Positions 53,227-56,417 of a DNA stretch of 64,000 bases are shown one piece after another. The stretch is from Spirochaetia bacterium (GTDB taxonomy: Bacteria > Spirochaetota > Spirochaetia > SZUA-6 > Bin103). The stretch spans positions 1,792,001 to 1,856,000 of the forward strand of contig OZ241863.1 in assembly GCA_965203055.1 (NCBI GenBank), in the 5' to 3' direction. The notes beneath the pieces are model-generated. The model was not told the DNA's origin. It searched no databases and saw only the letters and a list, made by a program, of their open reading frames with translations. A program made the position numbers and the translations under genes. Position 1 is the stretch's first letter. Every line of letters begins with the position of its first letter.

Positions 53227-54111
53227 CTACAGGAACCGCCGCAGGCCGGCGAGGGTCTCGCGGGTGGACTGCGGGCCGGTATCGCCCGGCTTGCGCCAAT
53301 GGGTTTCGACGCTGACGACGCCGGCGTAGCCGTCGCTGCGGAGCGCGGCGATCTGACCGGCGTAGTCCACCGCGCCGCCGCCGATCGGCGCCCAGCGCGT
53401 CAGGCCGGCGGCGGCGTCCACGACCTCGGCGTCCTTCACGTGCACGTGGATCAGATACGGCAGCACGGCGCGGTAGCCGTCCGGCCAGGGCGTGCCGCCG
53501 GACACGAAGTCGTTGCCGGGGTCCCAGATGGCGCGCACGCGCGGATGGTCGACCGCGGCCAGGATGCGGGCCGCGTTGTGCCCGGAGTTGCCCCAGCAGG
53601 AGCGCACGTTCTCCAGCCCGAGGGTGACGCCGTGTTCGCCGGCGATCGCCGCCGCGGCGCGCAGCCCGGCGGCGATCTTCGGCAGCAGGGAGTCGGGGAT
53701 GGCGCCGCCGCGCGCCTCCCGCGGGGAGGGGTTGCCCAAGCCGATCATGGAGCTGCGCCGGAACGAGAACACGCGCACGATGCCGGCTCCCAGCTCGCCG
53801 GCGGCGTGGCAGCCGCGCCGGATCTGCTCCAGGTGCTCGACCACCGCCGGGTGGCGGGTCACCTCCGCCGCCGGCACCTCGTCCAGCTCGACCGCCTTGA
53901 AGGCGGGCGGATCGACCGCCACCACCCGCAGCCCCTCGCCGGCGATCATCCGCCCGAGGTCGGCGATCTCCGCGGCCGACAACTCGTGCACCGCGCGCCC
54001 GCCGACCTGGTTGAGCTCGACGTGGCTGAAGCCCATCTCCCGCGCCGCCGGCAGCGCCAGCGCGGGATCGTCAGCGATTTCGTCGGTAACGACGCCGAGC
54101 GAGAACTTCAC
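53227..54111 (-). CDS. Sugar-phosphate isomerase/epimerase (xylose isomerase-like TIM barrel)
   Basis: TDEI, LEN, WDPGN, HVHVKD, SVETH. Confidence 0.88.
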   Translation of the reverse strand: MKFSLGVVTDEIADDPALALPAAREMGFSHVELNQVGGRAVHELSAAEIADLGRMIAGEGLRVVAVDPPAFKAVELDEVPAAEVTRHPAVVEHLEQIRRGCHAAGELGAGIVRVFSFRRSSMIGLGNPSPREARGGAIPDSLLPKIAAGLRAAAAIAGEHGVTLGLENVRSCWGNSGHNAARILAAVDHPRVRAIWDPGNDFVSGGTPWPDGYRAVLPYLIHVHVKDAEVVDAAAGLTRWAPIGGGAVDYAGQIAALRSDGYAGVVSVETHWRKPGDTGPQSTRETLAGLRRFL

Positions 54112-56417
54112 TTCTGATCTACCCCTACCTCAACCAGAAGCTGCCGGCCGGCCAGGGTCTGGCGGGCCCAGAACAGGTTCTGGCTCGGATCGTTGCCGCC
54201 CGCCGCCAGGATGGCGGTGCCGGTGGCGGTGGTGCCGCCGCTCGGCGCCGCCGAAAAGGTCACGGTCGGGGCCGTCGTGTAGCCGTTCCCCCCGTTCGTG
54301 ATCCTCACCGACCGGACGCGGTATTCATAGACCGCGGTGCCGGTGGCGGTGGTGCCGCCGCTCGGCGCCGCCGAAAAGGTCACGGTGGGGGCGGCAGTGT
54401 AGCCGCTCCCCCCGTTCGTGATCCTCACCGAGGCCACCCCGTAGTCCATCACCGCGCTGGCGGCCGCTCCGCTGCCGCCGCCGCCCGTAAAGGAGACGGT
54501 GGGCGCCGAGGTGTAGCCGCTGCCGGCGGTCCCGACCGTCACCGAGTCGACCCCGTAGTCCATCACCGCGGTGCCGGTGGCGGTGGTGCCGCCGCTCGGC
54601 GCCGCCGAAAAGGTCACGGTGGGGGCCGAGGTGTAGCCGCTCCCCGGGTTGGTGACCCTCACCGATGCTGCCCCGTAGGTCACGCTCGCGGTAGCGGTCG
54701 CTCCGCTGCCGCCGCCGCCCGTAAAGGAGACGGTGGGCGCCGAGGTGTAGCCGCTGCCGGGGTTGGTGACACTCACCCCGGTGATGGTGGTGCCCATCAC
54801 CGCGTGGTAGCCGGCCCCGCTGCCGCCGCCGCCGGAAAAGGTGATCGTGGGGGCCGAGGTGTAGCCCGCTCCCGCGTTGGTGATGTCCACTCCTCGAATG
54901 TTGGTGAACAGATCCACGGTGACGGCCGCCCCGCTGCCGCCCCCGCCCACAAGGGTGACGGCGGGCGCCGAGGTGTAGCCGCGGCCCGGGTTAGACACAT
55001 AGATGCGCTCCATCCGCCCGTCGCTGTACCGATATGCGGTGCCGGTGGCCCTGGTGCCGCCGGACGGCGGCGCCTGGAACGACACCGTCGGATTGCTCGT
55101 GTAGCCGCTCCCCCGGTGAGAGGCGCTCGCGAAACGCGCCCGCGACACGGCGTCGGGCCCCCACGCGGTGCCGGTGGCGGTGGTGCCGCCGGACGGCGGC
55201 GCCGAGAAGGTCACGGTCGGGACCGAGCTGTAGCCGCTCCCATATTGATTGCCGGTTCTCGCCACGGAAGCGACCCGGTCCGGCCCCTCCGCGGCGCCGG
55301 TGGCGGTGGTGCCGCCGGACGGCGGCGCCGAGAAGGAGACGGTGGGGGTCGAGGTGTAGCCGCTGCCGGCGGTCCCCATCGTCACCTCACCGACGACTCC
55401 GCTTCTCGTCGCGGTGGCGGCTGCTCCGCTGCCGCCGCCGCCCGAGAAGGAGACGGTGGGGGTCGAGGTGTAGCCGCTGCCGGCGGTCCCGATCGTCACG
55501 TCATCGACGCCGCCGCTGATCGCCGCGGTGCCGGCGGCGTCGGTGCCGCCGGAGGGCGCCGCCGAGAAGGAGACGGTGGGTGCCGAAGTGTAGCCGCTGC
55601 CGGCGGTCCCGACCGTCACGTCATCGACGCTGCCGGTGACCGCCGCGGCGCCGGTTGCCGTGGTGCCGCCGGCCGGCGGCGCCGAGAAGGAGACGGTGGG
55701 TGCCGAGACGTAGCCGCTGCCGTTGGTCCCCATCGTCACCGAAGCGACGACGCCGCCGCCCGCTACGGTGCCGGTTGCTTCGGCGCCGCCGGCCGGCGGC
55801 GCCGAAAAGGAGACGGTGGGTGTCGAGGTGTAGCCGCTCCCCCGGTCGGTAATCCTGACCGACTCGACGGTGTCGGGGGCTCCCGACTGATCCGGGGCGG
55901 TGAGCACCAGCACGAGCGCGCCGGCGCTCACTTCGGCGGAAACCTCCCACTGCGCGCCGCTGAGGTCGCCCGCGAAGGCCGGCGCGGCCGCCGTGCTCGT
56001 GAACGGCAGTTCGTTGCCGCCGATCGACACGGTCACCGTTTCGCCCTCGACGCCGGTGAGCCCGTCCCAGGCGAACGGCGCGGAGCGGATCGTCAAGGCG
56101 CTCGGGTCCGTTGCGGCAGGCAGCGGCAGCGCCGATGACCAAGCATCCTCCCCGTCCTCCCCGAGGGGCCAGCTCTTCGTGGCCGGCGCCGGGGCCGCCG
56201 GAGTCGGGGCCGGCGCGGTCGGCGACCCGCCGTCGCCGCCGGTGCCGCCGCTCCCCGCGCCCGCGCCGCCGGTGCCGTTCGTTGCTGCCGGCCGGGCCGC
56301 CTGCTGGCACGCCAGCAGGGCGATGCCGGTGACCGCCGCCAACGCCAGAAGCAGCGATGCCTTGGATGCCTTACGAGTCGGATTGGTTCTGTCGCGTGCG
56401 GCGCGGTATACTCTCAT
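54108..56417 (-). CDS. Gly/Thr-rich repeat lipoprotein, copy 3 (14 repeats)
   Basis: Lipobox LLAC; 14 x V..V.....GSGYTS.PTV.F followed by an APPSGG or GGGGSG linker. Confidence 0.85.
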   Translation of the reverse strand: MRVYRAARDRTNPTRKASKASLLLALAAVTGIALLACQQAARPAATNGTGGAGAGSGGTGGDGGSPTAPAPTPAAPAPATKSWPLGEDGEDAWSSALPLPAATDPSALTIRSAPFAWDGLTGVEGETVTVSIGGNELPFTSTAAAPAFAGDLSGAQWEVSAEVSAGALVLVLTAPDQSGAPDTVESVRITDRGSGYTSTPTVSFSAPPAGGAEATGTVAGGGVVASVTMGTNGSGYVSAPTVSFSAPPAGGTTATGAAAVTGSVDDVTVGTAGSGYTSAPTVSFSAAPSGGTDAAGTAAISGGVDDVTIGTAGSGYTSTPTVSFSGGGGSGAAATATRSGVVGEVTMGTAGSGYTSTPTVSFSAPPSGGTTATGAAEGPDRVASVARTGNQYGSGYSSVPTVTFSAPPSGGTTATGTAWGPDAVSRARFASASHRGSGYTSNPTVSFQAPPSGGTRATGTAYRYSDGRMERIYVSNPGRGYTSAPAVTLVGGGGSGAAVTVDLFTNIRGVDITNAGAGYTSAPTITFSGGGGSGAGYHAVMGTTITGVSVTNPGSGYTSAPTVSFTGGGGSGATATASVTYGAASVRVTNPGSGYTSAPTVTFSAAPSGGTTATGTAVMDYGVDSVTVGTAGSGYTSAPTVSFTGGGGSGAAASAVMDYGVASVRITNGGSGYTAAPTVTFSAAPSGGTTATGTAVYEYRVRSVRITNGGNGYTTAPTVTFSAAPSGGTTATGTAILAAGGNDPSQNLFWARQTLAGRQLLVEVGVDQK

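Follow-up and report, generated by a model that had tools for sequence, protein, structure and literature searches.

A Spirochaete Lipoprotein of Fourteen Phage-Type GSGY Repeats That May Fold Out and Back as a Closed Stalk

We analyzed a 64,000-nucleotide (nt) stretch of the genome of an uncultured Spirochaetia bacterium (GenBank assembly GCA_965203055.1, contig OZ241863.1, positions 1,792,001–1,856,000; hereafter, the window), in which a single open reading frame on the reverse strand (window 54108–56417, read from the sequence) encodes a 769-amino acid repeat lipoprotein. The protein has a signal peptide, a tether, a β-rich N-terminal domain (N-domain), 14 tandem units of the GSGY repeat, and a conserved C-terminal tail. 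It belongs to a family whose 45 intact members in four genomes all have an even number of repeats and whose arrays have a distinctive central junction; the repeat is shared with bacteriophage proteins, and homopolymeric tracts in the family genes differ in length between relatives. The best single explanation of the protein, to which we give about an even chance of being right, is a closed chain in which the array would run out and back, turning between units 7 and 8, with the tail docked in the N-domain. Closure of the 14-repeat protein is extrapolated from the predicted structure of a four-repeat family member, P0136.

Sequence Organization

The N-terminus (MRVYRAARDRTNPTRKASKA-SLLLALAAVTGIALLAC) has the features of a lipoprotein signal, with a positively charged stretch and a hydrophobic stretch preceding a lipobox of the [LVI][ASTVI][GAS]C type (L34-L35-A36-C37). 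The lipobox cysteine is invariant in aligned family members (17/17 and 27/27 in two alignments). On sequence grounds, the protein is probably a lipid-anchored stalk exposed at the cell surface.

The array consists of 14 G-x-G-Y units of 38–43 amino acids, with the core G-x-G-Y-T-S-x-P-T-V-x-F. These agree with the general form of the GSGY repeat, namely tandem units of ~40 amino acids with the pattern G-x-G-Y-x(2,3)-P-x-V-x-F, and each unit has three strands in structural models. A search for G-x-G-Y gives 15 matches rather than 14, the additional one being a GAGY inside repeat 9. Units are joined by two types of linker, and those with a G-type linker are 38 amino acids long while those with a P-type linker are 40–43. 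At the DNA level, Tandem Repeats Finder detected periods of 114, 120, and 126 nt, corresponding to one repeat, and of 234 and 240 nt, corresponding to two. The strings SRARFASASHRG and YRYSDGRMERIY, quoted in the original prediction as belonging to the central repeats, are present in the protein, as is the short tail (33 amino acids) that it placed after the array. A division of the units into two subtypes by half (GTA vs. TN before GSGY) was considered and dropped, as in other family members the GTA type spans only units 2 to 4 or 5.

Predicted Structure of a Four-Repeat Member

Over its two ends, P0136 shares 45% and 54% identity with the 14-repeat protein. The AlphaFold2 model of P0136 has a mean predicted local distance difference test score (pLDDT) of 80.2 and a predicted template modeling score (pTM) of 0.56, and its topology was read from the residue ranges given by the structural aligner. 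Single sandwich domains of 57–91 residues align across P0136 residues ~49–338, in 27 of 28 rows of one search and in most of the 50 rows of another. As one sandwich domain spans this range, the tail strand is placed within the N-domain sandwich, and in the model the N-domain and tail strand form a single domain. The tail itself, consisting of a helix (315–326) and a strand (330–335), is modeled with pLDDT 86–92. The best sandwich row was 9efk_AE (Z 6.8, root mean square deviation (rmsd) 2.1 Å, 67 aligned), and the top rows were small domains from proteins of phage tails and necks. This confident model agrees with the suggestion in the original prediction that the N-terminal domain is completed by the tail.

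The repeats of P0136 show a second feature. Units 2 and 3 (residues 193–270) are modeled as one compact six-strand domain, similar to domain I of T4 gp18 (Z 5.7) and to the sheath of KP1, a Klebsiella phage (Z 6.1); neither units 1 and 2 nor units 3 and 4 form such a pair. No β-helix protein was found among 50 rows for this model, and a Foldseek comparison with the PDB gave a best E of 0.05, with a TM-score of ~0.1.

Repeat Number and the Central Junction

Repeats were counted with a hidden Markov model (HMM), with gaps and two HMM miscounts checked by eye; a simple pattern search undercounts them. All 45 intact members, which come from four genomes, have an even number of repeats, with 4, 6, 8, 10, 12, and 14 repeats occurring in 3, 10, 14, 2, 7, and 9 proteins, respectively.

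The junction between repeats n/2 and n/2+1 is set apart from the others by its length. In 18.8 of 43 members (ties shared; 6.3 expected), no other spacing is as long, and in 34 of the 43 it ranks first or second. Its mean excess is +2.25 amino acids, as compared to –0.09, –1.38, +1.40, and –0.74 for neighboring junctions. The central spacing is longest for n = 4, 6, 12, and 14, and second longest for n = 8, but not so for the two 10-repeat proteins. For the 14-repeat class, the mean G.GY-to-G.GY spacing is largest from unit 7 to 8 (43.0 amino acids), followed by that from 6 to 7 (42.4 amino acids); in the protein described here, these spacings are 42 and 43 amino acids. First and second halves also differ in sequence more than in any of 300 random labelings, and more than do shifted half-blocks.

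The even repeat number and special central junction fit a chain that folds back at its middle. Joined to a break at the array center in the low-confidence model of the 14-repeat protein (see below), they describe equal arms with a distinct middle turn, in members that are kin and with a parity that is common elsewhere.

A Possible Closed Stalk of Graded Length

In the closed-chain explanation, the lipoprotein would be a lipid-anchored stalk composed, in order, of the signal peptide and lipobox, the Gly/Pro tether, the N-domain sandwich, an even number of three-strand GSGY units, and the tail. The array would run outward for half its length to units 7 and 8, use the junction between them as a turn, and then run back. 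The tail strand would enter the N-domain sandwich, closing the loop beside the membrane anchor. In this case, paralogues with between 4 and 14 repeats would be closed spikes of graded length, having their central units at the far end. The arms could be β-helical or could pair into two-unit domains, and both arrangements stand within this explanation.

Observations Against a Closed Chain, and a Linear Alternative

Several observations weigh against a closed chain. Among ~31 members derived from metagenomes, 27 have an even number of repeats and 4 an odd number (7 repeats in P0008 and P0038, 5 in P0135 and P0141); these come from short assemblies, in which repeat collapse is possible. The paralogues are kin, and the parity counts therefore overstate independence. 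Nor is parity special to this family, since even totals occur in 81 of 97 unrelated repeat proteins. Unrelated arrays carry an odd/even sequence signature as well (31 of 34 arrays in leave-one-out assignment; z 2.1, reached by 3 of 200 nulls). This signature and the even totals indicate that two repeats per domain is probably a general rule for ordinary arrays, as judged from their sequences. Such a rule, which is in line with the two-repeat matches in phage models described below, may explain the parity seen here.

The P0136 model has limits of its own. Its best Z values (5–7) fall within the range that the alignment tool calls common, and we have therefore taken them as evidence on topology and not on kinship. 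The 27-residue tail of a four-repeat protein might also reach the N-domain without the array folding back. For 70 sequences, the mutual information of N-domain columns with those of the tail was dominated by phylogeny and subfamily signatures and was of no use as evidence.

Lastly, the AlphaFold2 model of the 14-repeat protein is poor (mean pLDDT 43.5, pTM 0.39) and does not show nested i/15–i domains. Only the N-domain (pLDDT 67–89) and tail (68–84) are confidently modeled, while the repeats are mostly below 50. The repeats form two parallel β-helix-like arms (residues 180–421 and 437–739), in which each unit is a rung stacked on the next, with a break between arms at residues ~421–437, the center of the array. 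The second arm aligns with SufD (Z 11.0), PfbA (Z 10.0), and polygalacturonases, and the first aligns with β-helix proteins in five rows (1 of 50 in one search and 4 of 50 in the other); alignments to autotransporter passengers and tailspikes were found as well. No row joining N-domain and tail was among the 50 rows of either search; β-helix matches filled both lists. The low confidence of this model forbids firm use of it in either direction.

The main alternative is an open linear rod, which we regard as distinctly less probable than the closed chain but as a serious competitor. In such a rod, the units would stack in sequence, either as one β-solenoid or as seven two-repeat domains. The N-domain would be at the membrane end, and the tail would lie at the far tip as a cap or as an oligomerization or binding peptide. 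Besides the i/i+1 stacking in the model of the 14-repeat protein, a rod of two-repeat domains would account for parity if adjacent repeats make one domain, and the odd/even signature of unrelated arrays and the two-repeat local matches in phage models agree with such a unit. Known stalk adhesins are also described as linear, as in the case of Periscope proteins (PMC8201768). However, the odd/even alternation is absent from the family (z 0.5, reached by 52 of 200 nulls; in a second test, by 376 of 1000 nulls), and the compact pair in P0136 involves units 2 and 3, out of register with pairs that start at unit 1. The position of the longest junction at the exact center for most repeat classes is not predicted by a linear rod, and the solenoid in the model of the 14-repeat protein is itself broken there, albeit in a model of low confidence. 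The placement of the P0136 tail strand in the N-domain sandwich, in a confident model, likewise weighs against the rod.

Linker Order and Nested Pairing

The original prediction went further than a closed chain and proposed nested domains, with repeat i paired to repeat 15–i and P-type linkers facing G-type linkers. The linker order it gave, P,P,P,G,P,P,P|G,G,G,P,G,P,P, is exact. Five complementary mirror pairs, the maximum possible, are reached by 672 of 2002 arrangements (33.6%) of 5 G and 9 P linkers. The requirement that these be exactly the five inner pairs is satisfied by 32 of 2002 arrangements, but this is a post hoc demand. Pairing i with i+7 likewise yields five complementary pairs. 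The mirror pattern is not conserved in the family: three other 14-repeat paralogues have 4, 5, and 3 complementary pairs of 7, and members with all-P or single-G linkers exist, PPPPPPGPPPPP being one of the linker orders read in other members. The mirror pattern is thus real yet uninformative. It is no better than chance, it fits i/i+7 pairing equally well, it is not kept in paralogues, and it arises in part by duplication, and it therefore carries no evidential weight for pairing.

The linker order is very probably the trace of one- and two-repeat duplications followed by drift, an explanation that concerns the linkers only and is compatible with any model of the fold. A two-repeat period of 234 nt (90% matches) at window 54331–54760 explains the G,P,G,P stretch of repeats 10–13, and 240-nt periods occur elsewhere in the array. 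Close paralogues have the C-terminal order GGGPGPP in common, whereas their N-terminal halves vary (PPPGPPP, PGPPGPP, PGPGGPP, and PPPPGPP). The frequency with which mirror arrangements arise by chance is in keeping with this history, and we found nothing that speaks against it for the linker pattern itself.

Strict nesting of i/15–i domains seven deep, with P and G linkers fitting their partners, is a special case of the closed chain that we consider unlikely. The compact six-strand domain of units 2 and 3 in P0136, with the N-domain and tail as the base, is the arrangement expected of it, and a weak P0136 row (residues 156–323, 77 aligned, Z 2.0) would fit units 1 and 4. Even parity and the central junction agree with nesting as well, and nested domain insertion is reported for T4 gp18 (PMC3004832). 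However, no pairing beyond units 2 and 3 was seen with a meaningful score, and linker complementarity lends no help for the reasons given above. Units of the N- and C-terminal halves showed no correspondence with the two signature types, odd and even, that mark ordinary two-repeat arrays (236 of 1000 nulls). The model of the 14-repeat protein has β-helix arms in place of nested domains; its sequential stacking, in repeats modeled at a pLDDT of less than 50, is the kind of outcome that the original prediction had named as refuting nesting. In the structure predictions, which had been put forward as a check, only the inner pair of P0136 appears as one domain, and the low-confidence model of the 14-repeat protein shows i/i+1 stacking. 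Partly supported is a chain that would go out and back, as suggested by parity, the central junction, and the P0136 tail, and less so its strict nesting.

Conservation of the Array Center

The most divergent units of the array are 8, 9, 6, and 7, with mean identities to the other units of 42.7, 49.5, 53.0, and 53.7%, respectively; the rest range from 55.5 to 71.2%. The central divergence noticed earlier is thus upheld, although shifted by one unit from repeats 6–8. The original prediction also proposed that the tip binds a ligand and that its variability among homologues be compared; between orthologues, the tip is not variable. The orthologue (L001 6001–8262, aligned with window 54111–56417) also has 14 units, and only 1 of 123 residues in repeats 6–8 differs between the two, as compared to 3.6–7% elsewhere in the array. 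At the central junction, there is one substitution between orthologues (Y473F), and an SDGR..R motif is kept in close paralogues. The array center is therefore distinct and stable, and not hypervariable. Synonymous differences in repeats 6–8 are also low (1 of 123 codons), and the low divergence there is hence not attributable to purifying selection.

Outside repeats 6–8, amino acid-changing codon differences between the orthologues exceed silent ones (14 vs. 7 in repeats 1–5, and 6 vs. 3 in the N-domain). This excess is suggestive of diversifying selection or of gene conversion between family members.

Distribution of the Repeat and Kinship with Phage Proteins

The GSGY repeat is widespread. 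Among 8000 scored database proteins of one length band, 5372 contained a match at E≤0.001, and some of the listed repeat proteins also carry glucanase, multicopper-oxidase, discoidin, NHL, or phage-stabilization domains. The original prediction pointed to a resemblance to structural proteins of T4-like phages, and profile and sequence searches bear this out. In PHROG, 15 families matched at E≤1 and 14 at E≤1e-10 (best E 1.5e-72), including PHROG 701, 5342, 460, and 708. By tblastn, 26 phage records were matched at 33–60% identity, of which 23 are cyanophages of Synechococcus or Prochlorococcus. The match in Prochlorococcus phage P-SSM4 lies in a 21.9-kb coding sequence (CDS) for gp7, annotated as 'baseplate wedge initiator', that adjoins gp25 and gp6. 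In BFVD, 38 models matched at E≤0.001, with local matches of two repeats (84–87 columns, rmsd 1.9–2.1 Å). The repeat thus occurs in phage tail fiber, baseplate, and neck proteins.

No match to the protein or its parts was found in Pfam, NCBIfam, or PADLOC. In the PDB, neither the sequence nor a profile of the repeat found a solved chain beyond a chance match (E 1.3), and the ESM Atlas contained unnamed clusters only (score 0.90). The gene itself does not look like part of a phage virion locus, as it has non-phage neighbors and ~30 chromosomal paralogues, and its N-domain is absent from 71 viral candidate stretches. The lipoprotein signal instead points to a lipid-anchored bacterial version of a phage-type repeat, as had been proposed.

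The Lipoprotein Family

The genome that contains the window has a size of 4.56 Mb on one contig with 68.8% G+C. It has 37 open frames with the repeat motif, of which 30 also have the tail motif, at 24 loci; about thirty paralogues are scattered over the chromosome. A metagenome-assembled genome labeled 'Spirochaetia bacterium' contains an orthologue that is 94% identical, together with paralogues of 70–72% identity, and the family is present in 4 of 30 related genomes. A profile of the N-domain found 61 matches among 1.84 billion representative proteins, no Pfam match at E≤10, and none among the 71 candidate stretches of viral contigs, and the N-domain and tail are therefore clade-specific as judged by these searches. 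Every complete member retains both N-domain and tail regardless of repeat number, with distant complete members having a variant tail. The conserved tail motif of the family is N-L-[FY]-[WF]-A-R-Q-T-L-x-G-x-x-L.

Contigs assembled from sequencing runs of sponge and marine metagenomes contain parts of the gene (share of sampled words ≤0.40). These contigs are short and mix paralogues, and one lacks 3 letters at the edge of the C tract discussed below; tract heterogeneity is not measurable from them. No RNA sequencing runs containing the stretch were listed. A literature search found no description of the family and no occurrence of the string GSGYTS.

Two family genes, at G000:C1 1934607–1936360 and 2699929–2701502, are split into two overlapping frames encoding an N-part and a C-part, and are likely pseudogenes or frameshifts. 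At least 9 of the 24 family loci are flanked by a 1.6-kb repeat (copies 90–92% identical), which encodes a 469-amino acid protein with an HNH motif (PF01844, E 5.7e-5). A recurrent neighbor of family loci, considered as a partner gene, turned out to be this element.

Another GSGY lipoprotein subfamily occurs in the window on the forward strand (17740–19466 and 20607–22118). These genes encode a lipobox (LLAC), a Pro/Thr-rich tether, and mostly G-type linkers, have neither the N-domain nor the tail, and end in ...SV[RE]F[IV]RN; no Pfam match was found. The gene at 17740–19466 is split into two frames near 18501, and the one at 20607–22118 has 10 units.

Promoter Region and Homopolymeric Tracts

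A candidate σ70-like promoter precedes the lipoprotein gene (Table 1). One such site was found in window 53900–56700 vs. 0.1 expected from shuffled sequences, and the 5' region is conserved among subfamily paralogues. This region includes a C tract, which is C20 in the window gene, C18 in the orthologue, and C10–C17 in subfamily paralogues; across the window gene, the G000 paralogues, and L001, L002, and L003, it ranges from 10 to 23 nt. Two further loci have tracts of 17 and 14 in the genome of the window vs. 21 and 20 in the relative, these loci being paired by similar leader peptides only. The differences (20/18, 17/21, and 14/20) are those expected of a phase-variable tract, though long-read homopolymer error is possible.

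The other subfamily of this family has a different tract, G7–G16, which is situated within the coding region directly behind the signal peptide. In several of these genes, a G8–G16 tract separates the signal peptide from a mature part in another frame (G000:C1 9765–11714, 474991–479462, 1984269–1985531, 2455191–2457161, 3067505–3069706, and 4089489–4091663). The C tract is a candidate expression switch distinct from this poly-G frame switch, and the expression of the window gene is probably switched at random through it. Random switching would accordingly act after a promoter-like site in one subfamily and inside the coding sequence in the other. In Treponema pallidum, the length of a homopolymeric tract at tpr promoters is reported to set transcription (PMC7864442).

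Feature Coordinates and Gene Neighborhood

Table 1. Positions of features of the lipoprotein gene and of associated elements (window coordinates except where a contig is given).
Feature	Position	Strand	Basis and remarks
σ70-like promoter site, TTGGGA-18-TACAAT	56464..56493	–	Candidate; only such site in 53900–56700
C20 tract	56431..56450	–	Between –10-like hexamer and start codon; read directly
AGAGG, Shine-Dalgarno-like	56426..56430	–	8 nt before ATG; predicted from sequence
CDS, 769-amino acid repeat lipoprotein	54108..56417	–	Open reading frame and homologues in own genome and relatives; stop codon 54108–54110
Signal peptide up to lipobox LLAC (Cys37)	56307..56417	–	Read from sequence; Cys invariant in alignments
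Gly/Pro/Ala-rich tether, residues 38–79	56181..56306	–	Low-complexity composition; pLDDT 31–58 in model of the 14-repeat protein
Clade-restricted β-rich N-domain, residues 80–183	55869..56180	–	Profile search and model (pLDDT 67–89, residues 111–180)
Repeat units 1–7, residues 184–468	55014..55868	–	Repeat counting; would be outgoing arm if array folds back
Central junction YRYSDGRMERIYVSNP, residues 462–477, units 7/8	54987..55034	–	Spacing statistics, conservation
Repeat units 8–14, residues 469–736	54210..55013	–	Repeat counting; would be returning arm if array folds back
Conserved C-terminal tail, residues 737–769	54111..54209	–	Helix 744–755 and strand 759–766; family motif
Xylose-isomerase-like TIM-barrel gene	53227–54111	–	Downstream of lipoprotein gene
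1.6-kb HNH element copy L066	G000:C1:943300-945500		Repeat comparison, PF01844

The immediate neighbors of the gene encode CHAD, TIM-barrel isomerase-like, glutamate-type dehydrogenase, and peptidase M30 proteins. The stop codon of the lipoprotein gene shares 4 nt (54108–54111) with the first possible GTG of the downstream TIM-barrel gene. A small open reading frame on the reverse strand (57614–58270), between the CHAD and peptidase M30 genes, encodes a C-terminal part like that of a short lipoprotein (…GMLLACVSARPAG…) and has no Pfam match.

Implications and Comparison with Known Systems

Widespread as it is, the GSGY repeat is represented neither by a Pfam or NCBIfam model nor by a solved structure. 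The natural series of 4 to 14 repeats between fixed ends makes both the fold of the repeat and the closure of the stalk directly testable. If closure is true, the family would represent a new bacterial means of building protease-proof surface spikes of graded size, each on one lipid anchor. A broader proposal, which we put forward as speculative and rather improbable, is that the repeat builds a closed, length-adjustable fiber of an undescribed kind. Half of its units would go out and half come back in two to seven levels, each of one outgoing and one returning unit, with the terminal strand locked beside the lipid anchor and growth occurring only by pairs of repeats; this rule might also apply to the module in the thousands of bacterial proteins, and the giant cyanophage baseplate and fiber proteins, that contain it. 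With its C and G tracts, the family looks like a pathogen-type contingency-gene system in an environmental, possibly sponge-associated, spirochaete, where the selective agent would be phages, grazers, or a host rather than antibodies.

The likeness to the tprE, G, J, L, and tp0126 genes of T. pallidum lies in a family of spirochaete surface-protein genes having a variable tract at or near the promoter. The tracts described there have 7–11 G, whereas those in the subfamily studied here are C10–C20 and follow the –10-like hexamer instead of lying before the start site or within the promoter spacer; the host here is environmental.

The closest kin of the repeat itself are the virion proteins of T4-like cyanophages (PHROG 701, 5342, 460, and 708; P-SSM4 gp7), which have the same three-strand GSGY repeat of ~40 amino acids. 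The lipoprotein differs from these in being encoded by a chromosomal gene of a multigene family and in having an N-domain that does not occur in viral contigs. Long alignments of its repeats to phage models have an rmsd of 14–24 Å, and the overall arrangement of repeats therefore differs.

Right-handed parallel β-helix proteins (PfbA, SufD, pectate lyases, autotransporter passengers, and tailspikes) resemble units 1–6 and 8–14 of the model of the 14-repeat protein (Z≤11.0, 140–226 aligned). Rungs of 38–43 residues would be unusually long for such proteins, and the resemblance is to repeats modeled with pLDDT below 50 and lacking a sequence match to any solved chain.

As a variable-length stalk of tandem β repeats that projects a functional part, the protein can be compared to Periscope proteins and fibrillar adhesins such as SasG, Aap, and Sgo_0707 (PMC8201768). 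Those described are linear, belong to Gram-positive walls, and vary in repeat number between strains of one gene. In the spirochaete family, length varies between paralogues, while both members of the one orthologue pair compared have 14 repeats; the anchor is an N-terminal lipid, and the chain probably returns to its base.

Among solved structures, units 2 and 3 of P0136 are matched best by domain I of T4 gp18 (98–188, a six-stranded barrel; Z 5.7, rmsd 3.0 Å, 77 aligned). T4 gp18 is described as serially nested, with domain I inserted in II, II in III, and III between the termini, which form IV (PMC3004832). Unlike the units of the lipoprotein, the domains of gp18 are not repeats and have no relation to one another; the two proteins are not similar in sequence, and the Z value is in the common range.

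The stalk of streptococcal antigen I/II folds back, with the chain going out and returning such that the head is far from the cell and the ends are near the anchor. Its architecture is one of A and P repeats (PMC3178794). Antigen I/II achieves this with an α-helix wound with a polyproline helix, whereas both arms of the spirochaete lipoprotein would be made of one kind of β repeat, with closure by a terminal strand in the N-terminal sandwich.

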